A stretch of DNA of 43,282 nt from IMG/VR virus record IMGVR_UViG_3300003690_000021, positions 1-43,282 of that record; one strand, given 5' to 3'. Below the pieces are notes generated by a model. It was given only the letters and a program-made list of their open reading frames with translations, made no database searches and was not told the origin of the DNA. This document shows, one piece after another, positions 4,001 through 42,756 of the stretch. The first letter of the stretch is position 1; every line of letters starts with the position of its first letter. This DNA comes from a virus. Made by a program: the position numbers and the translations under genes.

Positions 4001-6494
4001 CGAACACATGAGCGAGCGGCTGGCGCCGGTACTGAAAGCGACTCAAGCGATACCTAGATCGGTGAATGCTTTAGCAAAAGCCGAACGCGGCCTAGAGTTG
4101 GTCAGGCTAGGCAAGGAAGCCACGCCCCAGCAGATATCTGACTGGACCGAGACGGTGACGCACCTGAATGCCGATCCTGATGCGCGCCAAGGTGTGGATG
4201 CCCTGCGTGCGTACTACCGCGAGTTGCTGGACATGAAGCTAGATGAAGGTGTGCTGTCGCGTGAGCAATACGACGCGATTGTGGCACGTGGAGAGAACTA
4301 TGTGCCATTCGTGCCGGACGATCTAATGGAGTGGACGGGTACTGGGTGGAAGTACGCTCCGGTCAGAAGCACGGGCGTAAGGCGGTCCACAGGCGAGAAG
4401 GTTGCCGAAGCGGCAACAGTCGATCCGCTGGATCAGGCCATACTAGATACCTACGAAACGTTCGCGAGAGTCGGCAAACAGCGAGTCGCGAACGTTATCG
4501 GCGGGATAGTCAATACCAATCCAGAGGCTGCTGCTAAGTTCATAACCGAGGTGACGCCAGCCCGTAAACCAGGTGGCGCTCCGGTGTCGGAGCTTGATGT
4601 GGTCGAGACGATCGTGAACGGTGAGCGTCGGTTCTTTCGTGTCCACGACCGCGATCTCTTTGAATCTTGGACGAATTTCAACAAGTCGACCACCTCAGGC
4701 GTGGTCAGCGTATTGAACAGCGCCAGACGCTTCATGCAGGCGTCGATCACGGGCCACCCGATGTTCGGGGTAGCGAATGGCATTCGCGATTTCCTTATCA
4801 GTTCAATGGCCTACCCGCTGAAAGGCGGATTGAGGGGCTTTGCCGGTGCGACCGCTGCTGGTGCTGGGATAGGAGCCGCCATCGATGAGGACAGAGGGCG
4901 CGGCGCAGTGAGGGGTGGTTTGCTAGGCGCGACCATGATCGGCGCCCCAAATCTTGCTGCCCACATGACGCGTTCGCTATCGGCGCTCAACGATATCATG
5001 GGTCCGAAGGTTGTTGGTGGAGTCGCGGGTGGTATGGGTACCTGGATTGGGCAGGACGACGATAAGACATTACCCGAATTCTTGGCGACAGTCGGGCTTG
5101 GGGTCGCGATCGGGACCGGGGCCGGGGCGGGTGTGGGTAAAATACTACCCGGTAACAAGGAAATATACGCCGAGTTTCTGAGGGGAGGCGGAGGTGGTAT
5201 GGGTTTCTATGCCCATGACAAGCGCTCTGCTAAAACGCTCAGGCGCGCGCTGTTACGTGAGGGTGTGAAGCCTTCCGATTTCATCAACCCGCGCTCGATA
5301 TGGGACGCGGTGCAGTACGTCTCGCGGGCGATTGAGACGGCACCGCGGCTGGCACGCTACAAGGAACTCAGGGCGGCCGGCGAGGAGGTGCCCGAGGCAG
5401 TGTTCCAGGCCCGTGATCTTTCGCTCGATTTCTCAGTCAAGCCGGGCAGTGAGACTCTTGCCACAGCGACACGGGTAGTGCCGTTCCTGAATCCCTGGAT
5501 CCAAGGTATGGACAAGACGGCCCGGTTGATGGCGGATCCGGACGCTGTCGCGGTTGCTGGTGCCACAATCCTCGCGCCATCGGTTTCGCTCTGGATGATG
5601 ATCCAATCGGATCCGGAGGTCGCGCGTGCGTACAACGACCGTCCGTCTTACGAGCGTAACTCTCATTGGCTAATACCGAAGAAATGGTTCACCGGTGACG
5701 ACGGGTTCTGGCGTGTACCAAAGCCGTTCGAGGTAGGGTTCATTTATGCATCGTTGCCTGAGCGCACGCTAGAGTATTTGGGTTCTAAGGACCCCGAAGC
5801 GTTTGCTGGTGCGCTGCGCGATATGTATGGGCAGTTCACACCGGAGGGTTGGCCGGTGGCCGTAGGTCCTATTGTAGAGGCTTCGATCGGCGAGCATGGC
5901 TATGACTTCTGGCGGCGCCGTGAGATCGACCCGCGTTCGTGGGAGAACCTGCCGCCCGAGTTCCAATACGACGAGCGTACCTCGATCGTGGGCTTGAAAG
6001 CCGGCAAGCTTTTAGGCAAAAGCCCAGCCAAGATAGATCACTTGATCAGGGGTATCACGGGTAGTTTGGGTGCCGAGGGGCTAAATCTTACTACCCAGCT
6101 CGCTAAAAGTCTCGGCATCGACACTAGGGTGGAGCCGATGGGCACAGGTCGGATGTTCGCGCGTCGGTTCCACACCAGCCCTGTAGCGACGACCGAGAGC
6201 GAACTCTTATTCCGCAGGCGTTGGGACAAGGCTGACAAATCATACAATGCGCTCGAAGAGTTGGTGACTAGCGGGAAGGAAGCCGAAGCACGTGAGTACG
6301 CACGTGAGCATCGCGACGATCTGGAGACCTATGCCAAAATGCGTGAGACCGAGAAAGCTTTACGCAAGCTTTCTCGTGCTCGCGGTATGATCAGGGAAGC
6401 CCCTCTACCGCGTGATGAGCGCCTAGAGTCTGTACAGAGAATCAACCGGGCAATCAGTGAGATGACGCGCGCCACCATGCGCGCCAACAACTGA
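1041..6494 (+). CDS. Giant (1817 aa) polyvalent virion/ejection protein with an ADP-ribosyltransferase-like segment
   Basis: Single uninterrupted ORF. Residues ~455-578 (nt 2403-2774) read VVGFHGT...VHIGTRRAA...GVDGVIYQNIVEDRGQISVLAFDP, which resembles H-Y-E ART-like domains of phage polyvalent proteins. It has 54-aa tandem repeats, a recurring DELPTVRPGQGA motif and several Gly/Ala-rich hydrophobic segments. It lies just before the lysis cassette, as T7 gp16-type proteins do. Confidence 0.6.
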   Translation: MPVHDTYESLLVEMENNKGESVYDSVMREMDRGKVKDNLYKQGALGVVEAFGRVASGITQDPEIKEYYRSLSQRTAPKTLAGTTLRVGGNVLGEGLLYYTGGRFMKSLAGGVAQRVAPQLAGRARGLGAKLMSKIPERFRGVAGAAGEVAGDVVAYSPVDLAITASGPESSVAGAIAELTDSEIAERIAADPGSRFLAEMATGAVGDTAIRLIARGVRLLRSGVAGLAPDELNRPVSELFRGRRQVSDPPLDEMLQLEAGPIITPPPTRELTDEEAFVFAGRQADETRLRRSETEAELARLGLEPSAVKQIEAGAIITPAPARELTDEEAVEFAGRQAEKSRRLRSAAEEIMVRLGLEPPTVRALPAPDVAGGPLIRGPGEVTPDELPTVRPGQGAAELRYAADRDVVREPTVEPRGVHTLDDPAAPGRDLDAAKLRAEEGPPVADSDPVTITPRPDGGVTVVGFHGTRTSGEVATAFGGVHIGTRRAAIKRLADHVAGQVGGLPGAEKLQTIEVKLSNPLGSVENPMFEKDMFQIVNVPRRLAELKAQGVDGVIYQNIVEDRGQISVLAFDPKSTNIRQTTNVSDQVKSYEKESMDLWAAVRRQEEIVAAVETPLTEPRFGRRMVRPGQAELPEGDVVVTRVGGTAVGGGLKETILDELPTVRPGQGARVGGTSAIDAPGLPGKGAAELRRRATYRNQYEKLSDNKLVDKYRNLVRSMVRIEGEAEYRNISFARGRRTQQRDRILEVEDMLRQRGVNPENARAEIYVGMKPSDVSEANRDLLGSLDELSDEAVTQEVRQTVRAWQGDRASTSLNERLAMLHDNIERLGRNVSDEAWDYSTSSGLTGTGLQARGVLALLGGAAAAATGDTSEERLQRGLTGFAVGAGVEAISMRALSKRAKFTARDAAVLGGNEAATRVAASVGTGAEMKSAVTGTLPERLREFGSYLRYKLARVEQPLEVFGREVSGTEKLRDEMASARGTVATAGEHMSERLAPVLKATQAIPRSVNALAKAERGLELVRLGKEATPQQISDWTETVTHLNADPDARQGVDALRAYYRELLDMKLDEGVLSREQYDAIVARGENYVPFVPDDLMEWTGTGWKYAPVRSTGVRRSTGEKVAEAATVDPLDQAILDTYETFARVGKQRVANVIGGIVNTNPEAAAKFITEVTPARKPGGAPVSELDVVETIVNGERRFFRVHDRDLFESWTNFNKSTTSGVVSVLNSARRFMQASITGHPMFGVANGIRDFLISSMAYPLKGGLRGFAGATAAGAGIGAAIDEDRGRGAVRGGLLGATMIGAPNLAAHMTRSLSALNDIMGPKVVGGVAGGMGTWIGQDDDKTLPEFLATVGLGVAIGTGAGAGVGKILPGNKEIYAEFLRGGGGGMGFYAHDKRSAKTLRRALLREGVKPSDFINPRSIWDAVQYVSRAIETAPRLARYKELRAAGEEVPEAVFQARDLSLDFSVKPGSETLATATRVVPFLNPWIQGMDKTARLMADPDAVAVAGATILAPSVSLWMMIQSDPEVARAYNDRPSYERNSHWLIPKKWFTGDDGFWRVPKPFEVGFIYASLPERTLEYLGSKDPEAFAGALRDMYGQFTPEGWPVAVGPIVEASIGEHGYDFWRRREIDPRSWENLPPEFQYDERTSIVGLKAGKLLGKSPAKIDHLIRGITGSLGAEGLNLTTQLAKSLGIDTRVEPMGTGRMFARRFHTSPVATTESELLFRRRWDKADKSYNALEELVTSGKEAEAREYAREHRDDLETYAKMRETEKALRKLSRARGMIREAPLPRDERLESVQRINRAISEMTRATMRANN
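1803..2126 (+). repeat. Two 162-bp (54-aa) tandem repeats inside the giant gene
   Basis: LQLEAGPIITPPPTRELTDEEAFVFAGRQADE... is followed by KQIEAGAIITPAPARELTDEEAVEFAGRQAEK.... The first ~90 nt of each unit are nearly identical. Confidence 0.85.
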
Positions 6495-7242: not shown

Positions 7243-7647
7243 GTGCCGAGCTTCGGTCGGCGCTCGCTCGGCAATCTGAAGAACGTCCATCCCGATATGG
7301 TGCGTTTGTTTACCGAGGTCATCAAGCACCGCGACTGCACCGTGCTCGAAGGCCACAGAAGCCCCAAGCGTCAAGCGCAGCTGTTCGCCGAGGGCAAGAC
7401 ACAAAAACGCGCTGGCGGCAAGCACAACTTGTTTCCTTCGGAGGCCGTAGACGTGATGCCGTGGTTCAACGCCAAGCCGCACATTCGTTGGAATGACACG
7501 CGAGCGACGTACAGCTTCGGTGGTTTCGTGCTCGGTATGGCGCAGAGTATTGGCATCCGCATCCGCTGGGGCGCCGATTGGGACGCGGACCAGGAGTATG
7601 ATGATCACACCCTTGTCGATGCGCCGCACTACGAGATTCTGAAATGA
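7243..7647 (+). CDS. Endolysin, peptidase M15 (VanY / L-alanyl-D-glutamate peptidase-like)
   Basis: Motifs EGHRSPKRQAQLF, GGKHNLFPSEAVDVMP and LVDAPHYEI fit the H..D..H zinc-ligand pattern of M15 peptidases. The gene sits among membrane-protein genes. Confidence 0.75.
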   Translation: MPSFGRRSLGNLKNVHPDMVRLFTEVIKHRDCTVLEGHRSPKRQAQLFAEGKTQKRAGGKHNLFPSEAVDVMPWFNAKPHIRWNDTRATYSFGGFVLGMAQSIGIRIRWGADWDADQEYDDHTLVDAPHYEILK

Positions 7648-8133: not shown

Positions 8134-8727
8134 ATGAAGCTATCCCTAGTGCTGCTCGTTTCCCTCGCAGTCCTAGCCCTCCTGGGGTTGCGCCTGTCGT
8201 CGGCCGAGAGGCGGGTCGCCGAGGCGGCGACTACGGTGGCCGTGCTGGAGATCGAGCGCGAGCTGCTAGAGCTTCGGGCCAAGGCCAAGTCCGCCGCACT
8301 GGACAGCGTCAGGGCGGCCGCGGCGGTCTCGGAGCGTGTCCTGGCCGCCCAGCGGGCCCAGGCCAGCCAGAGGGCTGCTCAGGCGGCCAGGCAGGTATCT
8401 GAGGCTGGGGGGGAGGTCCGGGTGCTGCTGGACAGCCTGGGGCTGAATACCGAGGTGCTGGACCTGCTGGTCCTGGCCCACGACGAGGAGGTGGACGCGC
8501 TGGAGGAGCAGATCAGCCTCGCCGACTCGACTGCGGCTGTCCTGCGGGGGCAGCTAGAGGCTACTGATACCGCCCTGGCCTCCGAGCGAGCGGTTCGTCT
8601 AGCGGCTCTTGCCGAGAACGAGGCGCTACGGAAGCAGGTGCGTGCCCTCGAAAATGCGCGGTTCCGCAGCAGGGTCTTCTCCGGCGGGATTGTCGTAGCC
8701 GTACTGGTCGGCGCCGTGCTGCTGTAG
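8134..8727 (+). CDS. Coiled-coil envelope protein with hydrophobic N- and C-terminal segments (spanin-like)
   Basis: MKLSLVLLVSLAVLALLGL at the N-terminus, a long Ala/Leu/Glu/Arg heptad-like region, and VFSGGIVVAVLVGAVLL at the C-terminus. No Cys, so no lipobox. It is the last gene of the rightward arm. Confidence 0.4.
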   Translation: MKLSLVLLVSLAVLALLGLRLSSAERRVAEAATTVAVLEIERELLELRAKAKSAALDSVRAAAAVSERVLAAQRAQASQRAAQAARQVSEAGGEVRVLLDSLGLNTEVLDLLVLAHDEEVDALEEQISLADSTAAVLRGQLEATDTALASERAVRLAALAENEALRKQVRALENARFRSRVFSGGIVVAVLVGAVLL

Positions 8728-10178: not shown

Positions 10179-11102
10179 TCACTTGCCTAAGTCTGACCAG
10201 AGGTGTTCAATGTCCGGTTCAGCTTGGCGAATCCGCAATGTAGAATAGCAATACTCGATGGGAACTTCGCCCTCCACGCCGTGACGGTTTTTTGCGACAA
10301 GAATAAAGGAGCGTGCTAACATAGGGTCTACTCGCTGGTATCGTGAGTGATCGAGCAACAGGACGATGTCGGCGTTGCTTGGGATCGTTCCGCCTCCCAT
10401 CATACCATAGATGGTCGGTTTTTGGGTCGTGTCTCGCCCCGTCGCTGTATTGAACTGCGACAGCGCGATGATAACAACGTTCTCGGCATGCGCGAACAGT
10501 CGCAAACTGCTCGCCACTTCAGTGACCTGGTTGTAGATGCTGTCGTCGTCACCCGTTGACACCAACTGCATATAATCGAGGACAAACAGATCGACGCCGT
10601 GCTCATCACGCAGGTAGCGGCAGGCAGCCATAACGTCGGCAATCGAATTGAGCGGTTCCTGGTTCACATAGAACCCAGGAACGCGGTGCCCGATGCGGGC
10701 AGAAGTTTCCTGGAGATCGTAAATCTTCCCCAGCACCCGCTCGAACGCAGCGAGCGAAAAACGCCCGCGCTCAAGCTGCCGGATGGGCGTACCCGTCGCC
10801 ATGGCGTAGAACCGTGCAGCAAGCTGGACGTGAGACATTTCGAGGGATAGGAAGCCGACGCGGGCCCCACCATGAGCCATCGCGTGGAAGGCCATGTACT
10901 CGGCTAACAAACTTTTACCAGCGCTTGTCCCCCCACCGATCGAGACGAACCACCCTGGGGCGAGACCCTTGGCGCCGCCGTCATCGCCGCATATCGAGTT
11001 TAGGCTTTCAAAAGGTGTCGGAATCGCATTCGTGGGAAGCTGCTGCCGCGCAGCCCACGCAATGGCAAAGCTCCCGTCCATCACGTCGACGAAGCTAGTC
11101 AT
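10179..11102 (-). CDS. DnaB-like replicative helicase (RecA-like C-terminal domain only)
   Basis: Walker A GGGTSAGKS, FLSLEMS, Walker B LFVLDYMQL, and ALSQFN. The 307-aa length covers the DnaB C-terminal domain only. Confidence 0.8.
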   Translation of the reverse strand: MTSFVDVMDGSFAIAWAARQQLPTNAIPTPFESLNSICGDDGGAKGLAPGWFVSIGGGTSAGKSLLAEYMAFHAMAHGGARVGFLSLEMSHVQLAARFYAMATGTPIRQLERGRFSLAAFERVLGKIYDLQETSARIGHRVPGFYVNQEPLNSIADVMAACRYLRDEHGVDLFVLDYMQLVSTGDDDSIYNQVTEVASSLRLFAHAENVVIIALSQFNTATGRDTTQKPTIYGMMGGGTIPSNADIVLLLDHSRYQRVDPMLARSFILVAKNRHGVEGEVPIEYCYSTLRIRQAEPDIEHLWSDLGK

Positions 11103-12315: not shown

Positions 12316-12783
12316 TTAAAATGGTAATCCATCAGAGCTGGCGCTACTCTTGTCCTCTGCCAGCTCAGGCTCGTTCCGGTCTCCGGCATCCGGCATTTCC
12401 AGCACCGCGAAAAGCCGATATCGGTCGCCTGTTTTCGACTCCTGCCAGCCCTCGAACGCGACGTGGACATGCTTGCCCTCGTCGCCAGGGACGATCGCGC
12501 CGTCGAGCGCCGCGTAATTCAGCCCGATATTAACCTCGGTATCTGGCGTGACCAAGCACGTGACCTTCTCGCCGTTCTCGCCTTTGCCAACCGTGAAAAG
12601 TTCATTTGACACCGCGGTCACCCGCGTAGTGGCGGAGAGGCCAAACTTTCCCTCCCAGATTTTCGTGATCTGACCTTCCACCCAGCTGTAGTGCTCCCCC
12701 CATTTAACAAAGGGAGTACCGGTGCCGCTTGCGGTACGATCGCGCGCTCCGCCGTCTCTCAGCTCATCAGTCCTGTTGCTCAT
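12316..12783 (-). CDS. SSB-like protein with acidic C-terminal tail ending DGLPF
   Basis: Start at MSNRTDEL. The core looks beta-rich. The C-terminus reads EPELAEDKSSASSDGLPF, recalling the DDDIPF-type tails of bacterial SSB and the terminal Phe of T7 gp2.5. It lies next to the exonuclease. Confidence 0.5.
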   Translation of the reverse strand: MSNRTDELRDGGARDRTASGTGTPFVKWGEHYSWVEGQITKIWEGKFGLSATTRVTAVSNELFTVGKGENGEKVTCLVTPDTEVNIGLNYAALDGAIVPGDEGKHVHVAFEGWQESKTGDRYRLFAVLEMPDAGDRNEPELAEDKSSASSDGLPF

Positions 12784-13633
12784 CTTTACCTCCATCGATG
12801 GGTGTGTCGTAAATCGTCTCTCGTGGTGTCTTGCCTGCGAAACTGTCAACGTCTAGCTGAAACATCTTCACGTGCGCCGCGGCTCTGAACGTCGTCCATA
12901 ACCGGTCGCTGTATCGAATCGGGTGGAGCGTCACGCCATCGGATCGCACGTGTACAATTCCCAACCGCTCCGCGCGATGAGGTCCCCACCGGATCTTCTT
13001 GCCAATCCACTTATCAGTTTCCAGACCGATTCGCCGCTTGCGAACGACGGCGAATTCGGCGTGCAGATAGGCGGCCAATTGAACTGCAAATTCTGGGTAT
13101 ACGCTCGCTCCGCTTTTCCAATCGAGCAGCCACGTCTGGCCTTGCTTATCTAGATCCCATAGATCGAGAGTGCCTGCGAAGGCGTGCTTCGGAGAGAAAA
13201 CGGTAAGCTCGGAGGCGAGCACCTTGCTGGAGCGAGCCTTGAGAAATCGTTTCACGTGCGCGGCACACAGAGCATTTTCTTCAGAGAGATCTTTTTGCAG
13301 CGGTCGGTTACGAACCGTCGCTTCTATAGCCTCATGGATCGAGGTCCCTCGGGTAGCCGCCAAATCGCGGGTCGACCACGGCGCGTTCTTGATCAACTTA
13401 ATCGCATCGGTCGCCGGCAGACCTTGCCAGCTCGCACGGTGGCCGACGGCGAACTCGGCCGTGGTTTTCGCAGCCCACATGCCCAGCCAGGGCTTCGGGA
13501 TCCCGCCGCAGAGCGTCGTGACCCGCCGCAGGCGCTGCCCATCGATCTCGTATCCGTAGCGGCTGCGGCTGACCTCGACCTCGGGAGCCGCATCCGCTTC
13601 CTCTTTCATAGCCTCCAGGATTGCGCGGGTCAC
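12767..13633 (-). CDS. PD-(D/E)XK exonuclease (RecB/Cas4/lambda-Exo-like fold)
   Basis: TSIHEAIE, GTLDLWDL...WLLDWKSG (D...D/ExK) and QLAAYLHA (QxxxY). GTG start. Confidence 0.65.
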   Translation of the reverse strand: MTRAILEAMKEEADAAPEVEVSRSRYGYEIDGQRLRRVTTLCGGIPKPWLGMWAAKTTAEFAVGHRASWQGLPATDAIKLIKNAPWSTRDLAATRGTSIHEAIEATVRNRPLQKDLSEENALCAAHVKRFLKARSSKVLASELTVFSPKHAFAGTLDLWDLDKQGQTWLLDWKSGASVYPEFAVQLAAYLHAEFAVVRKRRIGLETDKWIGKKIRWGPHRAERLGIVHVRSDGVTLHPIRYSDRLWTTFRAAAHVKMFQLDVDSFAGKTPRETIYDTPIDGGKDEQQD

Positions 13634-13693
13634 TTTTCTACCTTACCTTTCAGAGTTGGCCTTCTGTGGGGAAGGCAGGTGGTGTGGACGGAG

Positions 13694-13720
13694 CGCCCTT
13701 CGGCCGTTGGCCGGAGGGCG
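13694..13720 (-). terminator. GC-rich hairpin (12-bp stem, 3-nt loop) between two leftward genes
   Basis: cgcccttcggcc-gtt-ggccggagggcg, with one G-U pair. No U-tract follows. Confidence 0.4.
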
Positions 13721-13799
13721 TGACCGTTTCCCCCTGGTTCCCCGCTTCTAATGGCATCCAGCATCTGTGCCAGCGATCCAGTGGTGAAGCGAGGATCCT

Positions 13800-14027
13800 T
13801 CACAGATCTTGCGCGCCATCACGCGCGCCGTACTCCTCACGGTCCAGCGCCTCGCATGTAGATACGAGGATGTCGTGCAGCTGCCGCCGTGACAGATGTT
13901 CGCGCTCGTGCCCCGCACCACACAGAAACGCCAGCAGATACGGGTACGCGATGCCGCGGTCATCACGCTGCATGACTACCTCGGCCGTGGCGCCGGCACC
14001 GCACGAGCAAGTAGTCGAACCTTCCAT
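13800..14027 (-). CDS. Small Cys-containing hypothetical protein
   Basis: 75 aa. ATG 14027 is preceded by GGAGGAAGG within the duplicated 62-bp leader. Confidence 0.5.
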   Translation of the reverse strand: MEGSTTCSCGAGATAEVVMQRDDRGIAYPYLLAFLCGAGHEREHLSRRQLHDILVSTCEALDREEYGARDGAQDL

Positions 14028-14028
14028 T

Positions 14029-14090
14029 GCCTTCCTCCGTGGGATAAGCGTGACGGTGTGAAGGTGACCGCTACGATGAGCTGTGTCAAG
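14029..14090 (-). promoter_or_regulatory. Duplicated 62-bp leader/promoter-like element, copy A
   Basis: Exact copy of 15529-15590. The minus strand reads CTTGACA-cagctcatCGTAGCGGT-caccttcacaccgtcacgcttatcccacGGAGGAAGGC. It has a -35 hexamer and an SD but no clear -10. Confidence 0.45.
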
Positions 14091-14107
14091 CGCGGCACCC
14101 TGTCTGG

Positions 14108-15526
14108 TTAGAGGACGTGATCAGACGCCGCCAGCGTGCGTAGCCGCGCACCGATGCGGCAACACTCGTCATAGAAGGCGCTGGTCAAGTGGTCTCTGAC
14201 CTTGAGATGGGCGCACTCGTGAATGATGAGTCTATCTACTTCAAACTGATCCCGATATTTTAGCCGGCTAACATTGATGCCTATGAACGACCCACCACAA
14301 ATACCTGCCCATGGAAGCCTCAAACTATTCCACAGATCCACGGTGACATGCTTTTGTGTCGTATGTAGCGCGAACTTCTTGATGTATTCTACCAAGCGTC
14401 TCATCTCTGGAGTCCACTGATCTTCATCCAAGGGTGGGATCCCGTCTGGGTCTGTCTTTGCCTTGCCGTCATCGAACATGCTAGATGAGGGCACTAGGGC
14501 GTTGGCAGATCTTATAGTCTCCCATGCAGCCTTGGAGAATTGCCTGCCGTGGATTACCGCATACCCGGCGTCGATAGCTCGCTTATTACTTTCGGGGGCT
14601 TGGGGGTTGAAAGTCACCGCATCCCCTACGCGAGCTTTGATTATTGATCTGATGGCGTCCTCGTCCTCCATCGACTCCAGCGCCGTGCCCAGCCATCCAC
14701 CCTGTGCTTGCTCTTCGCTGATGTCGTCAGCCATGATCTCGGCAATGTGTCGCTCAACGTCGAATCGGAACGCCTGCTTCACTGAGCTTCTGTCGGTGGA
14801 CAGCGGCACCTTCTGCGCCACGTCCACGTGCCAGGGGCATTCCAGTTTATCGATGGGGATGCCCATCTCATAAAGATGAGGCGTCTCGCCTTCCAGCACC
14901 TTGTAGATAGTGATGGCGGTTTTGCGCCTCGTGAGCTTGAAGCCGCCTTCCTCGCCCTTGATCTCTGTCTGGAGCGTCCGCACGTCTTCGGCTATAGCCT
15001 TACGCTGCTTCAAGACTTCGCCGTTGATGGTCGTCGTGATTCCCTTCGGGGGTATCATCGACCGCAATAGCACGAGAGCCTCATCCAGCTCCACTCGCTT
15101 CATCCGCAGCGTAGCGTTAAGGACGGAACCAGTCTCCGTTTGCTTGCGCCCCAGCTTGCGACCGTGCGGCCCGAAGCTGATCGAGCCCGTTGTGCTGCTA
15201 ATGCTGGCCTCGGAAGCAACTGAAAGCAGGAACTTCTCACCGATGTTGAAGCGGCCCCGCTGCTCCGGGTTTCCGATTTTGTACGACTGCTTGTAAAGGG
15301 TGAATGCATCCGCCAGATCGCGGAAGCCATCGGGCGAGTCGTCCTCTACCCGCAGCTGAACTTGCGGCTTGCCGGCGATGGGGGCGAGATCGATTTTGAC
15401 AAAGCTGACGCCCTGCTCGTCCCAAGCATTCTGAACTGGCTCAAGCAGAAGCGGTGCTGTACCCCGTCGTGTCGCTACCGCAGCCAAGCCGGTTTTGTCG
15501 ACGGTGAACCACTGCGTGGATTCCAT
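14108..15526 (-). CDS. GHKL (Bergerat-fold) ATPase fused to a SprT-like HExxH metalloprotease segment
   Basis: Start at MESTQWF (SD in the duplicated leader); the extension to 15589 would run through the promoter-like repeat. N-box LLEPVQNAWDE, VEDDSPDGF and RGRFNIGEKF. C-terminal LIIHECAHL at 14207-14221. Confidence 0.6.
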   Translation of the reverse strand: MESTQWFTVDKTGLAAVATRRGTAPLLLEPVQNAWDEQGVSFVKIDLAPIAGKPQVQLRVEDDSPDGFRDLADAFTLYKQSYKIGNPEQRGRFNIGEKFLLSVASEASISSTTGSISFGPHGRKLGRKQTETGSVLNATLRMKRVELDEALVLLRSMIPPKGITTTINGEVLKQRKAIAEDVRTLQTEIKGEEGGFKLTRRKTAITIYKVLEGETPHLYEMGIPIDKLECPWHVDVAQKVPLSTDRSSVKQAFRFDVERHIAEIMADDISEEQAQGGWLGTALESMEDEDAIRSIIKARVGDAVTFNPQAPESNKRAIDAGYAVIHGRQFSKAAWETIRSANALVPSSSMFDDGKAKTDPDGIPPLDEDQWTPEMRRLVEYIKKFALHTTQKHVTVDLWNSLRLPWAGICGGSFIGINVSRLKYRDQFEVDRLIIHECAHLKVRDHLTSAFYDECCRIGARLRTLAASDHVL

Positions 15527-15528
15527 TT

Positions 15529-15590
15529 GCCTTCCTCCGTGGGATAAGCGTGACGGTGTGAAGGTGACCGCTACGATGAGCTGTGTCAAG
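15529..15590 (-). promoter_or_regulatory. Duplicated 62-bp leader/promoter-like element, copy B
   Basis: Identical to 14029-14090, immediately upstream of ATG 15526. Confidence 0.45.
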
Positions 15591-15610
15591 TCCTCTACTT
15601 TTCAGCATTG

Positions 15611-15823
15611 TCATTTGTCTTCCTCTTCCTCTCGCATCCTCATGGCCTCATCCCGAGCGTCGGAGTAACCGCTCTCAAAAAAAAACTCGGCGCTGCTCAT
15701 GCCGGCATGCTCCTCCTGGAAGCGGGCCTCCTGGGCGCGACCCTGCGCCAGCACGCGCTTGATCGGGTCGGTCGCGCTAGTGATCCTGGTTTCCGCCTCG
15801 ATCTCTTTCGTAATCAGTTTCAT
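15611..15823 (-). CDS. Hypothetical acidic protein
   Basis: 70 aa. GAGGAGGG lies upstream, and there is an ATGA overlap with the previous gene. Confidence 0.5.
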   Translation of the reverse strand: MKLITKEIEAETRITSATDPIKRVLAQGRAQEARFQEEHAGMSSAEFFFESGYSDARDEAMRMREEEEDK

Positions 15824-16128
15824 GGGGCCCTACCCTCCTCAAGATCCTTGAGGTGTCGTGCTGCTTCATCGCGCTGTGAGCTGTGCCACATTTTGAGGAC
15901 CGTCCAGCTCTCGACTGGCCCCGTCCCAACCACCAGCAGAATTTGATCCATCATCGTGGTGACCAGCAGAAAACAGACCGGGCAGATCATGCCATCTCCT
16001 CTTCGTGAGTCCAGAATCCGATAGGTCCTGCTGCGCCTCTTCTGGATGCGGAGCGAGCGTTTCATCGAGAAACTGAGGTCCGCGATGGCCTCGGAGATGG
16101 CCTGATTGTGCGGCTTGCGTGAAACCAT
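15820..16128 (-). CDS. Hypothetical protein with one hydrophobic segment
   Basis: 102 aa. GGAGGAGGGG lies upstream of ATG 16128. Hydrophobic segment ICPVCFLLVTTMMDQILLVV. Confidence 0.5.
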   Translation of the reverse strand: MVSRKPHNQAISEAIADLSFSMKRSLRIQKRRSRTYRILDSRRGDGMICPVCFLLVTTMMDQILLVVGTGPVESWTVLKMWHSSQRDEAARHLKDLEEGRAP

Positions 16129-16133
16129 TTATT

Positions 16134-16592
16134 TTACCCCTCCTCCAGGTGGGCCCACGCTTTGCAGGCGATGTCATAGGGGCCAGCGAACGAGTTCTCA
16201 ATCGGGAGCTTAACCTCACCAACTTCGACACCCTTGTTGTAGACATGGCAGATAACTGAGTCCTCGCTGTCTTCCACGAGAACAACGACTGGGCCTAGTG
16301 TATCGTAGTCTTCATTTATCCAGACTCCAGACTCTCCAGCATCGTTCAGATGAATCCAGACGGTGCCGTCTTGCTCGTTCAGCGTATCCCATATTGCGCT
16401 GTTGTAGTGGTCATAGACGCAAGGATTAACTGATGCGAAGTCAACCGCCGGTCTTGAAGGAAGTTCCCTTTTGCGCTTTGGCAGGTATATCTTGTCGAGC
16501 TTCTCGGCTCTCGTGACCACCTCGTCACTCAGCGTCTCCTCGACAACGTGGAACCAGTCCTCAATAACGTATGCTCGTCGCTTGCTCATCAT
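16134..16592 (-). CDS. Hypothetical acidic early protein that carries one copy of the 54-bp inverted repeat
   Basis: Start at MMSKRRAYV (AGGAG upstream). The longer ORF to 16652 would include the promoter. Confidence 0.55.
   Translation of the reverse strand: MMSKRRAYVIEDWFHVVEETLSDEVVTRAEKLDKIYLPKRKRELPSRPAVDFASVNPCVYDHYNSAIWDTLNEQDGTVWIHLNDAGESGVWINEDYDTLGPVVVLVEDSEDSVICHVYNKGVEVGEVKLPIENSFAGPYDIACKAWAHLEEG
16491..16544. repeat. 54-bp inverted repeat, copy 1 (53/54 identical to the reverse complement of 37235-37288)
   Basis: Reverse complement: gtcgaggagacgctgagtgacgagGtggtcacgagagccgagaagctcgacaag. It is in frame and encodes VEETLSDEVVTRAEKLDK. Confidence 0.9.
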
Positions 16593-16623
16593 GTCTCCTA
16601 CTGTGGGGTGAGTGTCCGATAAC

Positions 16624-16652
16624 AAGCTAACCGTTAAGGTTAGTCGTGTCAA
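16624..16652 (-). promoter_or_regulatory. Sigma70-type promoter with spacer palindrome TAACC-N5-GGTTA
   Basis: The minus strand reads TTGACA-17 nt-TAGCTT, with the palindrome at 16628-16642. The 5' UTR cactcaccccacag(t)aggag is shared with the ArdC promoter. Confidence 0.6.
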
Positions 16653-16690
16653 GGGTTGTGATTTTCACTTGCGAGAAAATCGTTTGCCTT

Positions 16691-16960
16691 TCACCGTCTC
16701 CTGCTGTTGGGTGGCGCCGCGATGCTTAATCGGTGGCGGATAGCAAGCGCCCAGCATCGGGCACACCTCGAGGTGGACGCATCGGGCCATGCTGCAGAGT
16801 CGTCTATCAGCTGCAGCCGCCGGTCGCACAGGGCTTCCCCCGCCTGCCGCTTGATGCGCCCGAGCGTGAGGTATCCCGCAGCCTCCAGGTGCTGCAGGAT
16901 CCGAGATCGCTCGAACTGGACGTATCGAGCGGCGAGACAACTCTGGGGCCGGACTTGCAT
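16691..16960 (-). CDS. Possible small winged-helix-like DNA-binding protein (weak)
   Basis: It is the only ORF in the 16.66-17.0 kb gap with a plausible sequence (ARYVQFERSRILQHLEAAGYLTLGRIKR). The start is uncertain (16960 or 17053) and the C-terminus is Arg-rich. Confidence 0.3.
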   Translation of the reverse strand: MQVRPQSCLAARYVQFERSRILQHLEAAGYLTLGRIKRQAGEALCDRRLQLIDDSAAWPDASTSRCARCWALAIRHRLSIAAPPNSRRR

Positions 16961-17006
16961 TCCTGACACCTCGGCCTGTAGGGTGAGTGCGTGACCGTCC
17001 TCGGCT

Positions 17007-17231
17007 CTACCTTCGGTGGCGGACAGAGTCTTGTTCCTCTTCGCAGTCTTCAATCGTGACGGTCGAGGAGTCGCCTATGTAGGTGCAGCTGTCGTCAATC
17101 CAGTCCGACGCTCGGCCATCGGCCTTATCTACTACTTCCCTGGCCTTCTTGACGGCTTCCTCGTCGGACTCGGCGGTGACGTCGAAGCAAATTGAAGCGT
17201 CTACAGCCATGCGGTAACGCCTGTCAGTCAT
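17007..17231 (-). CDS. Hypothetical acidic protein
   Basis: Start at MTDRRYRMAV, preceded by a (CCA)n tract and then CAGGAGG. The 5' extension to 17393 is rejected. Confidence 0.5.
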   Translation of the reverse strand: MTDRRYRMAVDASICFDVTAESDEEAVKKAREVVDKADGRASDWIDDSCTYIGDSSTVTIEDCEEEQDSVRHRR

Positions 17232-17481
17232 GCTGGTCCTCCTGGGTGGTGGTGGTGGTGGTGTGGCTTCCGTTTCCAATAGCGCGGAACCTATCGGCTG
17301 GGCCGGACCGCAAGCCGCGCACCTTGTCCATCTCGACGCGCACCCGATCCGCTGGAGTGGGAACGATGGTACGGACCGTGCCGTACCTTGCACCCATTGC
17401 CCAGAGATCGGTGCCTGGGTGGATCTCCACCCGGTCGCCTACCGTGTAAGCCGTTCCATCGTATCCGATTGCATTGTCCAT
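17224..17481 (-). CDS. Hypothetical small beta-rich (SH3/KOW-like) protein
   Basis: 85 aa, with YTVGDRVEIHPGTDLWAMGARYGTVRTI. The C-terminal Thr run is encoded by the next gene's (CCA)n leader. Confidence 0.5.
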   Translation of the reverse strand: MDNAIGYDGTAYTVGDRVEIHPGTDLWAMGARYGTVRTIVPTPADRVRVEMDKVRGLRSGPADRFRAIGNGSHTTTTTTQEDQHD

Positions 17482-17540
17482 AGGGTCTCCAGTGGTGGTG
17501 GTGGGCGCCGTCGCCCCCTGCTGGGGTGGTGCAAGGACCG

Positions 17541-17559
17541 GGCAGGAATCGAACCTGCC
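17541..17559 (-). terminator. Intergenic hairpin whose loop and closing pairs mimic a tRNA T-arm
   Basis: The minus strand reads GGCAGG-TTCGATT-CCTGCC. With one bulge the stem extends to about 11 bp. It lies in the 99-bp gap between two genes. Confidence 0.4.
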
Positions 17560-17580
17560 GCGGCCGGTTAAACGGTTAGG

Positions 17581-17784
17581 TTATTCTGGCTCGGCCACTT
17601 CCCAAATCTGCGAAACGGAAATCGCGCGCAGCTCGCAACCGGGTCGCGAGACAGGCTCAAACTCTGTGTCTTTAGTGTATGGCCCTGCCGCGATCATGGA
17701 CCCGTTCGGCCACAGTGTGAGGTGGAGAATCTCTTCGGCGTTGCTCCAAGAGGGGCCGCGCCTGGTTTCCTTTGGGTCTATCAT
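17581..17784 (-). CDS. Hypothetical protein
   Basis: 67 aa, preceded by CCACCACCGAGGAGG. Confidence 0.5.
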   Translation of the reverse strand: MIDPKETRRGPSWSNAEEILHLTLWPNGSMIAAGPYTKDTEFEPVSRPGCELRAISVSQIWEVAEPE

Positions 17785-17811
17785 GCTTCCTCCTCGGTGG
17801 TGGTCATGGGG

Positions 17812-18009
17812 TTATTTCCAGGGGGTGGGCGAAGGGGCGACGGGGCGGATAGTGTAGAGCCCTGAACTCTCGATAGCGTGCAGCATCCAACGGGGGAGCG
17901 TCTTCGTTCCCGCCACTTCGCAGAAGAGGCGCGACACGTCGCAAGCGGGGTAATTCTTCGTTTGCCCGTATACGCTCTTTTGCATGATGTCCATGGGCTT
18001 GGGCTCCAT
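17812..18009 (-). CDS. Hypothetical protein
   Basis: 65 aa, with a promoter and a (CCA)n-GAGGGAG leader directly upstream. Confidence 0.5.
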   Translation of the reverse strand: MEPKPMDIMQKSVYGQTKNYPACDVSRLFCEVAGTKTLPRWMLHAIESSGLYTIRPVAPSPTPWK

Positions 18010-18050
18010 AATGATCTCCCTCGGTGGTGGTGGTGTGGTGTTGGTATTAC

Positions 18051-18079
18051 AGTATAACCGCTACGGTTAGTCGTGTCAA
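18051..18079 (-). promoter_or_regulatory. Sigma70-type promoter with spacer palindrome TAACC-N5-GGTTA
   Basis: The minus strand reads TTGACA-17 nt-TATACT, with the palindrome at 18055-18069. It is part of a 40-bp exact repeat (18041-18080 = 19362-19401). Confidence 0.65.
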
Positions 18080-18097
18080 GGGTGCCGTCAAGTACAG

Positions 18098-18376
18098 TCA
18101 CAACTCCGGCGGTTGCCGGAACCCAGCCGATGTCGCGGACGCTTGTAGTTGCTGATAGAGGCATCGCTTGCAGGTGCTTGAGTGGTCTGCATAACTGCCT
18201 TCCTCTCTGTTGAAGAGAACTTGTGGGGTGAGCGGTACCGTCAGCCCGCATAGCGTTTTCGACGGGCCGAGGCCTCTCAAGTCTGTACTTTTCACCCAGT
18301 GGCCCTTCGTCCACTTGCAAGGCTCCAGCGTCCACGCGACTAGTGTGTGAGTTATGTTGATCTGGTCCTTGGTCAT
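18098..18376 (-). CDS. Hypothetical Cys-containing protein (possible zinc binding)
   Basis: 92 aa with C...C...CKRC. Preceded by a hairpin, (CCA)n and GAGGAGG. Confidence 0.5.
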   Translation of the reverse strand: MTKDQINITHTLVAWTLEPCKWTKGHWVKSTDLRGLGPSKTLCGLTVPLTPQVLFNREEGSYADHSSTCKRCLYQQLQASATSAGFRQPPEL

Positions 18377-18416
18377 CGGTGCCTCCTCGGTGTGGGTGGT
18401 GGTGGTGGAGCAGTGA

Positions 18417-18440
18417 CCGGCCGGGCTCTACCCCGGCCGG
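18417..18440 (-). terminator. GC-rich intergenic hairpin (9-bp stem) downstream of the ArdC-like gene
   Basis: ccggccggg-ctctac-cccggccgg. No U-tract follows. Confidence 0.4.
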
Positions 18441-18454
18441 CCTGCTCGTCAGGA

Positions 18455-19336
18455 TTAGGCTGCAACCTTGGCCTCCTCCTGCGGCCCGTTGATGAGATCG
18501 GCGGCCTTCTGTGCTTGGCTCGACGCGCTGAAAATGAAGTTGTTGTCGCTCTCCAGGGCTCGGATCCAGTTGGCGATATATCCCTCGTGCTGGAGTGCGC
18601 CGGAAATGCGGTGCTCGCCGCAGAGAAACGCGGCCGCCAGCTCCGCTATCAGCTCTTCGCGGGCGTAAATCTTGTCGCCGAAATTCTTGCCCTTCTCGCG
18701 GTTCAGGCGCTTTTTTGCGCCGGTCCAGTGGGCCAGCTCGTGAAAGGTGGTGGAGTAGAAGCTTTCGACGTTGTGGAAACTGCTGAGGGAAGGCACCTGG
18801 ATTCGGTCGTACGAGCGGTCGTAGAAGGCACGGTCGCCGCCGTAGTTGATCTCCGCCCCGGTCGCCGCGATGGTGGCCTCAGCGTGGGCGTGGCGCTCGT
18901 GATCAGGGACCTCAACGACCTCGGGCTCCGGCAGGCCCGTAGTCTGTGCGCGGTTGAAAACGGTGTAGGATTTTAGGAGTGGAAACGCGTCGCACTCTTC
19001 GCCGGCCGCGTCGACCTTAGTGATAAACTTCCAGAATATGACCCGGTGGCCCCATTCTCCCCGCTCGACGTCGTCAGGGCGTGGCAGAACTGATCCGCCC
19101 AAGGCCCTGCATTGTTTGAATGTGACCCACTCACTGGTGGGGTAGCCTTTCTCGGCTTGGATCAAGTTTAGTAGCAGCCTGTTGACGCCACGGTATGCCT
19201 TGCCGGTCGTAATGTTGACCGGTAGCCCGTTGCCTCCAGTCCACGGCTTTACCCACGGCGCCACGCCAGCCTTGAGAGCGGTCAGGATCTTGTCGGTGAT
19301 TGCGCCGCGGAGGTCGGTCTTTTCGTTCTTCGTCAT
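18455..19336 (-). CDS. ardC: ArdC-like protein: N-terminal ssDNA-binding domain plus HExxH metalloprotease domain
   Basis: APWVKPW...GKAYRGVNRLLL...WVTFKQCRALGGSV matches the ArdC N-domain pattern. FYSTTFHELAHWTG...YAREELIAELAAAFLC matches the C-terminal zincin pattern. Confidence 0.85.
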   Translation of the reverse strand: MTKNEKTDLRGAITDKILTALKAGVAPWVKPWTGGNGLPVNITTGKAYRGVNRLLLNLIQAEKGYPTSEWVTFKQCRALGGSVLPRPDDVERGEWGHRVIFWKFITKVDAAGEECDAFPLLKSYTVFNRAQTTGLPEPEVVEVPDHERHAHAEATIAATGAEINYGGDRAFYDRSYDRIQVPSLSSFHNVESFYSTTFHELAHWTGAKKRLNREKGKNFGDKIYAREELIAELAAAFLCGEHRISGALQHEGYIANWIRALESDNNFIFSASSQAQKAADLINGPQEEAKVAA

Positions 19337-19371
19337 GGTGTCACTCCTGTGGGGTGAGTGGTTGGTATTAC

Positions 19372-19400
19372 AGTATAACCGCTACGGTTAGTCGTGTCAA
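19372..19400 (-). promoter_or_regulatory. Sigma70-type promoter with spacer palindrome TAACC-N5-GGTTA
   Basis: The minus strand reads TTGACA-17 nt-TATACT, with the palindrome at 19376-19390. It lies 36 nt upstream of the ArdC ATG. Confidence 0.65.
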
Positions 19401-19417
19401 GAGTTGTGATCTTACCG

Positions 19418-19606
19418 CTAGTCACGCCCGAGGTTGGCATAAATCGCTTGCGCGTTTTCGGACTCTGGGCCACGAGCAAGCGGGGAGGGCTGAAAGTATG
19501 TCGAGATGCGGCATTGCCGAGCGTAAAGGTCAGAGCCTTGTCCGGTGTGGTTATTGACGCAGAACCAGTAGTGTGCGTCTACGATGTCGAAGCGGTCGTA
19601 GTACAT
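19418..19606 (-). CDS. Hypothetical small protein upstream of ArdC
   Basis: 62 aa (MYYDRFDIVDAHYWFCVNNHTGQGSDLYARQ...). Preceded by a hairpin, (CCA)n and GGAG. Confidence 0.55.
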   Translation of the reverse strand: MYYDRFDIVDAHYWFCVNNHTGQGSDLYARQCRISTYFQPSPLARGPESENAQAIYANLGRD

Positions 19607-19644
19607 TAGAAGTAATCTCCGCGGTGGTGGTGGTGGATCATGGA

Positions 19645-19666
19645 CCGACCGGGAGGCCCCGGCCGG
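19645..19666 (-). terminator. GC-rich intergenic hairpin (9-bp stem with one mismatch)
   Basis: ccgaccggg-aggc-cccggccgg. It shares the CCGGCCGGGG arm with the 18417-18440 hairpin. Confidence 0.35.
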
Positions 19667-19683
19667 CCAGCGAATGTCCGAAC

Positions 19684-20043
19684 CTATGTCCGTGCCTCGG
19701 CCACCCCGTCGTGCCCGACCTCAACAAGCAGGGGATACCGTGGGTCAGCGACTGAAATCTCATCCTCGTGAAGAATTTCTTCTACCGGAAGCGCATCGCG
19801 CCCATCCCAATCTGCATTCTGCTCGGGAGTTCCCAGATACTCCTCCCACATGTCTTGACAAACGCTGTCGTGTGCATGGTCTACGAGATCTACGAAAGGC
19901 GTGTCCAGCCACGCTCGGAAGGGCCTAAACTTCCGCGTGAATTCTTCACCGGATTCTCTTTGAAGTGTGACCGTGCCGGTGACAATTGTTGCCTGGGAGG
20001 AAACGCTCCACCGAACCGCTCGCCGCTTCATTTCGTTATCCAT
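19684..20043 (-). CDS. First leftward early gene: strongly acidic hypothetical protein
   Basis: Start at MDNEMKRR, with a perfect AGGAGG 6 nt upstream. ATG 20070 would fall at the predicted transcription start. By hand count there are about 25 Asp/Glu against 12 Lys/Arg. Confidence 0.55.
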   Translation of the reverse strand: MDNEMKRRAVRWSVSSQATIVTGTVTLQRESGEEFTRKFRPFRAWLDTPFVDLVDHAHDSVCQDMWEEYLGTPEQNADWDGRDALPVEEILHEDEISVADPRYPLLVEVGHDGVAEART

Positions 20044-20076
20044 TCCGTGCCTCCTATCTTGAGTTAACATGAAAGC

Positions 20077-20105
20077 ATACTAACCGTCACGGTTAGGCTT
20101 GTCAA
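20077..20105 (-). promoter_or_regulatory. Sigma70-type early promoter with spacer palindrome TAACC-N5-GGTTA, in the divergent control region
   Basis: The minus strand reads TTGACA-17 nt-TAGTAT, with the palindrome at 20081-20095. Confidence 0.65.
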
Positions 20106-20178
20106 GGGTTTCATTTCATGACCCAAAAAACCCTGCGTAACCCTTGCGATTACTGCGCTACTGTGAGAGATTGTACGG

Positions 20179-20361
20179 ATGAAACCACTCGACTACGCTA
20201 CCAAAAGACGGCGGCTCGGCTCTCAAGTCGAGGTCGCCAAGATGCTGAGAGTTCACGTCAACACAGTCTCCCGCCGCGAGTGCGGCACCCTGCCGATTGA
20301 CGGCGAGGCAGAGCATGCCCTCCGTTTCCTCGCCATGGACGAGCCGAAAGACCCCCGCTAA
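20179..20361 (+). CDS. XRE/Cro-like helix-turn-helix regulator
   Basis: RRRLGSQVEVAKMLRVHVNTVSRRECG fits the HTH_3 pattern. 60 aa. It is the first gene of the rightward arm and is divergent from the early promoter. Confidence 0.7.
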   Translation: MKPLDYATKRRRLGSQVEVAKMLRVHVNTVSRRECGTLPIDGEAEHALRFLAMDEPKDPR

Positions 20362-42752: not shown

Positions 42753-42756
42753 AGTA

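Follow-up and report, generated by a model that had tools for sequence, protein, structure and literature searches.

The genomes of T4-type phages carry mobile regulatory cassettes known as promoter-early stem-loops (PeSLs; Arbiol et al. 2010, PMC2839356; Comeau et al. 2014, PMC4122927). A PeSL consists of a promoter, often with a stem-loop between the −35 and −10 elements, and ends at its 3′ side in a Shine–Dalgarno (SD) sequence and a start codon; a variable open reading frame (ORF) located between two such cassettes can be excised or inserted as a mini-circle (PMC2839356, PMC4122927). Here we describe a related arrangement in the phage IMG/VR virus record IMGVR_UViG_3300003690_000021, of which positions 1 to 43,282 (one strand, 43,282 nt; hereafter the window) were analysed. 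This phage has a 43-kb genome with 59% GC and is unrelated to T4-like phages. On its minus strand, an exact 64-nt direct repeat, R64, precedes both the gene for a 472-amino-acid (aa) protein, which is predicted to join an ATPase module of the GHKL superfamily to a zincin metallopeptidase domain, and the neighbouring gene for a 75-aa ORFan. The reading we favour, and to which we give about an even chance, is that the GHKL-zincin gene is a mobile accessory gene captured between duplicated copies of a native promoter cassette, and that its product is an ATP-gated protease made early in infection, likely directed against a host protein.

Both copies of R64, termed R64a (upstream of the GHKL-zincin gene) and R64b (upstream of the 75-aa ORF), were recovered by a repeat search as identical at 64 of 64 positions, with a start-to-start distance of 1500 nt (Table 1). 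The sequence-only reading of the window had described this element as a 62-bp repeat; it is real in both copies and slightly longer, reaching 70 nt in a BLAST alignment with a single 1-nt gap that takes in the start codon and a GAA codon. Each copy thus spans from 1 nt 5′ of TTGACA to ATGGAA. Allowing up to three mismatches, a 27-nt core of R64 occurred twice, against 0.00 occurrences expected from 100 shuffles. Since the R64 copies and the whole 2.5-kb region around them (13500–16000) are 100% identical in assemblies of this phage that were made independently (JGI, ENA and Logan), the repeat is no assembly artefact; several Logan contigs end within it. No exact match to a 24-nt core of the R64 leader was present in viral and metagenome contig collections. 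The coordinates and sizes given earlier for the two genes (472 and 75 aa, both on the minus strand) were confirmed.

In R64a, C-TTGACA is followed by a 17-nt spacer ending in CGTAGCGGT, by CACCTT at the −10 position, by a C-rich leader of ∼30 nt and by the SD sequence GGAGGAAGG, 6–7 nt 5′ of the ATG. R64b starts 17 nt past the stop codon of the GHKL-zincin gene, and a promoter and terminator scan found no terminator between the two.

Table 1. Features of the R64 locus and the surrounding early region (positions in the window)
Feature	Position	Strand	Evidence and remarks
R64a, cassette 5′ of the GHKL-zincin gene	15527..15590	−	Exact 64-nt repeat; aligned with four sister early promoters
R64b, second identical cassette, 5′ of the 75-aa ORF	14027..14090	−	Exact repeat
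GHKL-zincin gene, 472 aa plus stop	14108..15526	−	ORF; ATG start 7 nt 3′ of the SD sequence
Predicted Bergerat-fold ATP-binding domain, residues 1–140	15107..15526	−	Foldseek Hsp90/TRAP1; Pfam and NCBIfam matches in homologues
Predicted beta-rich middle (transducer-like) domain, residues 141–250	14777..15106	−	Foldseek, conservation, secondary structure
Predicted alpha-helical linker, residues 251–365	14432..14776	−	AlphaFold2 secondary structure
Predicted minimal zincin metallopeptidase domain, residues 366–472	14111..14431	−	C-terminal model, Foldseek, conservation
75-aa ORFan, 4 Cys, first gene behind R64b	13800..14027	−	GC at codon positions 1/2/3 0.72/0.50/0.68, coding-like
Possible 57-aa ORF	13630–13803	−	GTGA overlaps with its two neighbours, the 75-aa ORF and the exonuclease gene
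PD-(D/E)XK exonuclease	12767..13633	−	Pfam PDDEXK_1, phrog_298
DnaB-like helicase, further down the block	10179–11102		
Cassette P16652	16587..16653	−	TTGACA, 17-nt spacer with hairpin CTAACCTTAACGGTTAG, TAGCTT, leader, SD, ATG
Cassette P18079	18014..18080	−	TTGACA, 17-nt spacer with hairpin TAACCG-TAG-CGGTTA, TATACT; 11/12 consensus
ArdC-type anti-restriction gene	18455–19336	−	ArdcN and MPTase-PolyVal zincin, E 1e-44 and 1e-29; phrog_7245
Cassette P19400	19335..19401	−	11/12 consensus; predicted to drive the ArdC-like gene
Cassette P20105	20040..20106	−	TTGACA, 17-nt spacer, TAGTAT; predicted first promoter of the leftward early operon

R64 is not an element peculiar to the two genes. Alignment with four further sites on the minus strand showed that it belongs to a six-member family of promoter-leaders, early cassettes of ∼65 nt in which R64a and R64b form a diverged pair. 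The common plan comprises CTTGACA(C), a 17-nt spacer containing CG(T/G)(A/G)(G/A)CGGT, a −10 hexamer, a C/A-rich leader (CACC..CCAC), an SD sequence and the start codon. As previously noted, R64 carries TTGACA, the spacer motif CGTAGCGGT of the early promoters and an SD sequence. The same reading found no acceptable −10 hexamer. In the alignment, CACCTT falls in register with the −10 hexamers of the sister cassettes (TATACT, TAGTAT and TAGCTT) and retains the A at position 2 (A-11) and the T at position 6 (T-7). With its perfect TTGACA and 17-nt spacing, R64 agrees with the sigma-70 consensus at 8 of 12 hexamer positions, compared with 10–11 of 12 in three of the sisters, which likewise have 17-nt spacers.

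All four sister cassettes (16587–20106, minus strand) contain the inverted repeat TAACCG-N3-CGGTTA between −35 and −10, which folds into a 6–7-bp spacer hairpin of −5.3 to −8.6 kcal/mol. A dimeric regulator might use it as an operator or, on read-through RNA, the hairpin might act as an attenuator. A search for a matching regulator gave a single marginal helix-turn-helix hit (60-aa ORF 20179–20361, plus strand, E 0.02). R64 forms no such hairpin because the left arm has degenerated and only the right half (CGGTCA) is kept.

These features of R64 could also be read as dedicated co-regulation. R64 would then form a promoter class of its own, either a middle type that depends on an activator or a type that evades a repressor of the early promoters, and selection would keep its copies identical; the GHKL-zincin gene and the ORFan/recombination block would fire together, later than the four consensus early promoters. 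Such a class would account for the consensus −35 and 17-nt spacing next to a degraded −10 (CACCTT versus TATACT), for the loss of half of the inverted repeat, and for the location of R64 at the switch from small early ORFs and ArdC to recombination and replication genes. It would also fit the extent of the identity, which covers the full 5′ untranslated region (UTR), further than in P19400 and P18079, which are near-identical over ∼41 nt. However, the marginal helix-turn-helix ORF was the only activator or repressor candidate we found, no additional conserved motif lies 5′ of the −35 element, where the two copies diverge at once, and identity that continues over the start and GAA codons resembles copying more than selection on a binding site. 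Moreover, with no terminator between the units, the downstream genes would be co-transcribed anyway. We regard dedicated co-regulation as unlikely, if worth keeping in mind.

Far less probable still is a structured RNA leader common to both mRNAs, a mechanism that the sequence-only reading had also proposed. An identical 5′ UTR on two mRNAs is what a riboswitch, a thermosensor, a small RNA target or an RNase site would produce. Yet the minimum free energy of the leader plus start (−23.5 kcal/mol) did not exceed in strength that of shuffled sequences (mean −25.0 kcal/mol, z = +0.48), with 132 of 200 shuffles folding as well or better. Only ∼30 nt of UTR are left after the −10, and no Rfam match was obtained over 13500–20300 at E≤1. 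The absence of the element from relatives and from the viral and metagenome collections leaves this idea without covariation support. We consider it very improbable.

The weak −10 of R64 apart, the family resembles PeSLs in several ways: these, too, are repeated cassettes (∼65–100 nt) with sigma-70-like −35 and −10 elements and with an SD sequence and start codon at the 3′ end. PeSLs sit directly 5′ of ORFans and plastic genes, here an ORFan and a mosaic gene, and a variable ORF flanked by two cassettes is their signature of insertion or excision via recombination. Furthermore, four of the six cassettes have the 6–7-bp spacer hairpin. There are also differences. Our phage, with its 43-kb, 59% GC genome, is unrelated to T4-like phages, its cassettes lack an AT-rich upstream tract, and their hairpins are short (−5 to −9 kcal/mol), with no T-run behind them, and missing from both R64 copies. 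Recombination through the cassettes, or via mini-circles, is suggested here by analogy with the T4-type elements.

The closest homologues (72–85% aa identity; loci L081–L086 of our collection) lie on other backbones with other neighbours, and DNA similarity to these closest relatives is confined to 14128–15528, the coding sequence, while the flanks are unrelated. Clustering the neighbouring ORFs, initially for 89 loci and then for 169, revealed no cluster present in more than 8 of the 169; the commonest were a serine recombinase, an SNF2 helicase, DUF932 and the pol III beta clamp. From the mosaic borders, the spread and the lack of a conserved neighbour, we conclude that the GHKL-zincin gene is a stand-alone, horizontally mobile accessory gene.

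This result also bears on the proposal that the gene and its 75-aa neighbour form a functionally linked pair. Neither the 75-aa ORF nor the R64 leader was found in 86 related loci, and the 75-aa protein is an ORFan with no homologue in the databases beyond the identical protein of the same phage. It is not the Cys-rich protein it was called either, having just 4 Cys in 75 residues. The sequence-only reading had itself named absence of linkage in relatives as the outcome that would speak against the pair; the genes are never linked there, and the idea therefore fails. The pairing is specific to this phage.

In two of the related loci, which have different backbones, a shared promoter-like block, polyG-TTGAC(A/G)GGGGTGTTA, is located directly 5′ of the GHKL-zincin genes (L084, 2760–2850; L085, 9100–9175). 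In that lineage, the gene seems to travel with its own promoter, and in our phage the resident R64 replaces this block. A further locus, L083, encodes a GHKL-zincin protein 75% identical to ours, and a 63-nt direct repeat (7309–7371 and 8189–8251, 79% identity) lies on either side of the gene that follows it, PAPS_reduct; the repeat includes the SD sequence and the first seven codons (MKVCEE). It is an independent case, next to a member of the same family, of a junction duplicated around an inserted gene, like R64. One JGI sample (3300056580; L086 and L093) contains, besides this phage, a GHKL-zincin gene of 85% identity on another backbone, so that the lineages of donor and recipient are found together in one metagenome.

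The duplication itself could be neutral, that is, replication slippage or an illegitimate event could have copied the intergenic region and left a second copy without function. The complete lack of substitutions over 64 nt, against 62–92% identity among the other cassette pairs, fits a young and passive copy, and there is no population variation from which constraint could be gauged. The edges of the repeat speak for function: they coincide with functional edges, from 1 nt 5′ of the −35 element to the start codon. Nor are the copies in tandem; what lies between them is a foreign coding sequence, homologous to relatives up to the gene ends and no further, and without R64b the genes downstream would be left to read-through alone. 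A purely neutral origin appears improbable to us, somewhat more so than dedicated co-regulation. Recent duplication as such, which the sequence-only reading had listed as its alternative, fits the repeat best.

Under the capture reading, R64 would be one of the phage's own early expression cassettes, with sigma-70-type −35 and −10 elements, a short unstructured leader, an SD sequence and a start codon, and the six cassettes would punctuate a leftward early operon. The GHKL-zincin gene would have entered through recombination at or beside a cassette, either by homologous exchange or by insertion of a mini-circle between cassettes, as in the T4-type PeSLs. Host RNA polymerase would start at both R64 copies, presumably less strongly than at the consensus cassettes. 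R64a, lying upstream, would have the newcomer transcribed and translated, and the downstream copy, R64b, would re-initiate for the residents, namely the 75-aa ORFan, the exonuclease and the replication block. That the copies are perfectly identical could then reflect a recent event or gene conversion together with functional constraint, with no need for a special shared regulatory RNA.

Several observations weigh against this interpretation. The −10 of R64 is weak and fell below the threshold of our consensus promoter scan, and without the sister hairpin R64 would be an incomplete element of the PeSL type. Furthermore, the phage is represented by 19 co-linear contigs of 99.99% identity, whose gene-call differences are caller artefacts, and none of them contains a single-cassette variant, a gene-less variant or an indel bounded by cassettes.

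The 472-aa protein was modelled with AlphaFold2, using its family alignment, at a pLDDT of 91.5 and a pTM of 0.80. In this model it is an Hsp90/sacsin-type GHKL ATPase fold followed by a middle domain, a helical linker and a minimal zincin domain (Table 1). The motifs quoted earlier from the sequence, LLEPVQNAWDE (residues 27–37), VEDDSPDGF (60–68) and RGRFNIGEKF (90–99), are all present, as are the HECAH codons at 14207–14221. In terms of the Bergerat fold, they provide motif I (E29-x3-N33-x2-D36, an ExxxNxxD pattern formed by E29-PVQ-N33-AW-D36), motif II (D62...G67) and motif III (G91-x4-G96), with motif IV at T112/G114. A Foldseek search of the PDB returned 110 matches at E≤1e-3, headed by TRAP1, Hsp90 and GRP94 (E 1e-14 to 1e-11), and aligned the model to fragments comprising the N-terminal and middle domains of Hsp90 (e.g. 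4ivg, 5hph). The middle domain has its own near-invariant residues (R201, E220, G222, Q238-K239 and R246). No specific PDB match and no recognisable relative were found by Foldseek for the helical linker.

The ATPase is closest to the Hsp90/sacsin branch of the GHKL superfamily. It shares with that branch (HATPase_c_3, SACS, NF047352) the Bergerat fold plus middle domain, the ExxxNxxD motif, the adenine-binding Asp and a glycine-rich lid. It differs from Hsp90 in lacking the C-terminal dimerisation domain, in place of which there are the helical linker and the zincin. It also departs from the branch in motif II, DDSPDGF, and motif III, GRFN(I/L)GEK, and the 472-aa protein scores below all model thresholds. 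In the BFVD, the best structural match was A0A1B1ITP9, an unnamed viral protein of 399 aa (E 2e-34), with rIIA and the GHKL domains of topoisomerases far behind.

At the C-terminus, the earlier proposal of a SprT-like zincin holds for the zincin fold, with a loose structural resemblance to Wss1 of the SprT/WLM group, and is not supported as to family. The domain is predicted to consist of a helix, a three-stranded sheet and an active-site helix bearing H436-E437-x2-H440, followed by D445-H446 (HExxHx5H). Modelling the C-terminal 228 residues alone gave a pLDDT of 92.5, with strands at 151–174 and the HExxH helix at 183–195 in model numbering. With the last ∼100 residues, Foldseek identified selecase and jannalysin (E 0.01–0.08, prob 0.96–1.0), followed at rank 11 by Wss1 (5xbv; E 0.24, prob 0.95) and then by the BlaR1 protease domain and IrrE/PprI; every match at prob ≥0.9 was a zincin. 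The minigluzincins (selecase, jannalysin, proabylysin) and Wss1 are thus the best structural matches (prob 0.95–1.0), but with Foldseek E-values of just 0.01–0.24. What they have in common with our domain is the length of ∼100 residues, the three-stranded sheet, the HExxH helix and a His as third ligand; in our protein, this third His lies 6 residues past the second. A profile of the family searched against the PDB gave marginal matches to myroilysin (E 0.22) and proabylysin (E 0.46), both at the zincin domain, whereas the single 472-aa sequence matched no PDB sequence. SprT or WLM membership is not supported: none of 35 diverse full-length members of the family matched a SprT or WLM model, and more generally none matched a peptidase model of Pfam at E≤0.01, including SprT-like, WLM and minigluzincin. 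The combination of GHKL and zincin that the sequence-only reading had proposed was thus confirmed.

Three points count against the domain assignment. Motif II reads DDSPDGF and not DxGxG, and motif III GRFNIG and not GxxGxG, its middle Gly being replaced by N94; the match to the zincin fold is marginal by E-value (0.01); and the 472-aa protein itself falls below the thresholds of Pfam (nothing at E≤0.1), PHROG, PADLOC and NCBIfam. The assignment rests on homologues and structure. Among the 35 members mentioned above, HATPase_c_3 matched 17, HATPase_c 9 and SACS 6, and 24 were matched by the NCBIfam model of the sacsin N-terminal ATP-binding domain (NF047352).

The family is large and uniform, and it carries no annotation. 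A word-seeded search yielded 285 clusters of full-length homologues at 90% identity, and an exhaustive profile search of 1.84 billion representatives gave 2377 matches at E≤1e-3 and 1219 at E≤1e-30; at 50% identity, the family thus has no fewer than 1219 clusters. Among the 150 best matches listed, nearly all measure 470–510 aa and align end to end. We assessed conservation in an alignment of 269 homologues with 33–84% identity to the 472-aa query. In the ATPase, N33, D36, D62, G67 and G91 are present in 100% of the members and E29 in 99.6%, G96, E97 and K98 in at least 99%, Q238 in 99%, G114 in 98.5%, T112 in 95% and N94 in 93%. The zinc-site residues H436, E437, H440 and H446 are conserved in 100%. 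Strict purifying selection therefore acts on both catalytic centres.

Members occur on 233 IMG/VR viral contigs and in metagenome-assembled genomes (MAGs) of Planctomycetota, Verrucomicrobiota, Acidobacteriota, Chloroflexota, Pseudomonadota, Actinomycetota and others. Searching with the 472-aa protein by tblastn identified six plasmids and an uncultured phage of 485 kb, none of them annotated. Three large plasmids carry homologues, one of them amid orphan methyltransferases, a dUTPase and phage-like genes, and one plasmid homologue adjoins SIR2-HerA. A DNA search of the 2.5-kb region against GenBank phages gave no match, and a literature search for a phage protein with sacsin and metallopeptidase parts returned one irrelevant mention. 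To our knowledge, a GHKL ATPase fused to a zincin is not a described or characterised architecture. In some loci, a second, divergent protein is encoded 0.3–1.1 kb away (e.g. L005, 3486–4865; L068, 7759–9204), with a GHKL-like N-terminus of the QNAxD or NAIDR type, a C-terminal HEVAH or EECAH and no Pfam match. This suggests that paralogous GHKL-zincin families sometimes co-occur (4–6 loci).

Two characterised groups of proteins offer functional parallels. One is ArdC, in which a binding or targeting module, the single-stranded DNA-binding ArdcN domain, is fused to a small zinc metalloprotease, MPTase-PolyVal. Like the GHKL-zincin protein, ArdC is carried by mobile elements, and it is expressed first on entry; the difference lies in the N-terminal module, an ATPase here and not a single-stranded DNA-binding domain. 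Our phage encodes an ArdC-like protein of its own, 3 kb upstream of the GHKL-zincin gene and directly behind the near-consensus cassette P19400, so that its early operon contains two unrelated zincin-bearing fusion proteins. Homology between them was rejected, with an hhalign probability of 0.3% and no family member matching the ArdcN or MPTase-PolyVal Pfam models.

The other group comprises TmtA of the Tiamat system and rIIA, which, too, employ a GHKL domain in phage–host conflict, rIIA being among the BFVD matches. We know of no zincin in TmtA or rIIA, and a literature search on Tiamat yielded no mechanistic detail. Identity with TmtA was rejected, since the 472-aa protein has no match and the weak matches of 16 of the 35 homologues are expected from the shared GHKL domain. 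The parallel still raises the possibility that the gene is a defence or exclusion gene of mobile elements, with a sacsin-like ATPase as sensor, as in TmtA, and the protease as effector that aborts infection by competitor phages. The PADLOC TmtA models do match those 16 members weakly (best E 5.8e-08), one plasmid homologue lies beside SIR2-HerA, family members are common on the MAG chromosomes of bacteria from many phyla, and a stand-alone gene with its own promoter is moron-like. In our phage, however, the gene belongs to the lytic early operon, with ArdC on one side and the recombination genes on the other, and does not occupy a lysogeny or moron position. The 233 viral contigs with family matches, and defence-island neighbours in only one of three annotated plasmid contexts, likewise do not favour this role. 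We regard a defence gene as a possible but doubtful explanation.

On the reading of the product as an early protease, the biochemistry of related proteins suggests how its parts might cooperate. In the GHKL superfamily, ATP binding closes the lid and the clamp, as in Hsp90, MutL and MORC. In the 472-aa protein, ATP could similarly close a clamp or chaperone-like module, which would position, deliver or license a substrate for cleavage by the tethered zincin. Its presumed early synthesis together with ArdC points to a target in the host, such as an immune factor or a protein bound to DNA, which it would most likely disable, possibly in the service of counter-defence. Set against this are two points: the gene context points to no substrate or partner, and a defence role, with its weak TmtA similarity, fits the distribution on mobile elements equally well.

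The genes around the repeat are consistent with the placement of the GHKL-zincin gene in the early region, between ArdC and an exonuclease/helicase module. Downstream of R64b, the stop codon of the 75-aa ORF overlaps the possible 57-aa ORF by GTGA; the latter is not called by public gene callers, which leave a 166-nt gap there. The PD-(D/E)XK exonuclease is the first recognisable gene of the recombination and replication block, which would be transcribed from or through R64b.

Elsewhere in the window, an exact 91-nt terminal direct repeat (1–91 and 43192–43282) indicates that the assembly is circularly closed or covers a complete genome; the sister contigs of the phage measure 43201, 43254 and 43473 bp. 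An 1817-aa ORF (1041–6494, plus strand) contains an LPD38 polyvalent-protein domain (phrog_9854) and internal repeats (1810–1955 versus 1972–2117, 82%; an exact 37-mer at 2192–2228 and 3011–3047). Periodic coding repeats, probably of the tail-fibre or coiled-coil type, occupy 39664–42915 (plus strand), with a 99-nt period over 40805–41670 within a 798-aa ORF (39664–42060), a 69-nt unit present twice at 42070–42207 and a 47-nt unit present twice at 42806–42915. Three 15-nt units lie at 658–708.

Taken by itself, the repeat is an ordinary feature of the phage that extends a known principle to a new lineage: PeSL-style portable promoter/SD cassettes around a traded gene are not limited to T4-like phages, and such a repeat gives a handle on how small phages gain accessory genes ready for expression. 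The protein family is the part worth testing. Large and uniformly built, it joins two catalytic modules, each well understood, in an architecture that was uncharacterised in our literature search, and the catalytic residues for mutation are already identified. Its conserved active sites and its early, entry-phase setting beside anti-restriction genes make it a testable candidate for counter-defence or host takeover, or else for a mobile-element defence gene. The boldest form of this idea, which we put forward tentatively and consider unlikely, is a new class of ATP-gated proteases, spread over phages, plasmids and prophage-like regions in many bacterial phyla, deployed on entry against a host immune or DNA-bound protein and traded at promoter cassettes. 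If true, the GHKL-zincin protein would be analogous in function to ArdC or to Wss1/Spartan but would depend on energy, its Hsp90/sacsin-like clamp selecting the substrate, and the repeated native cassettes would be docking sites at which phages trade its gene.

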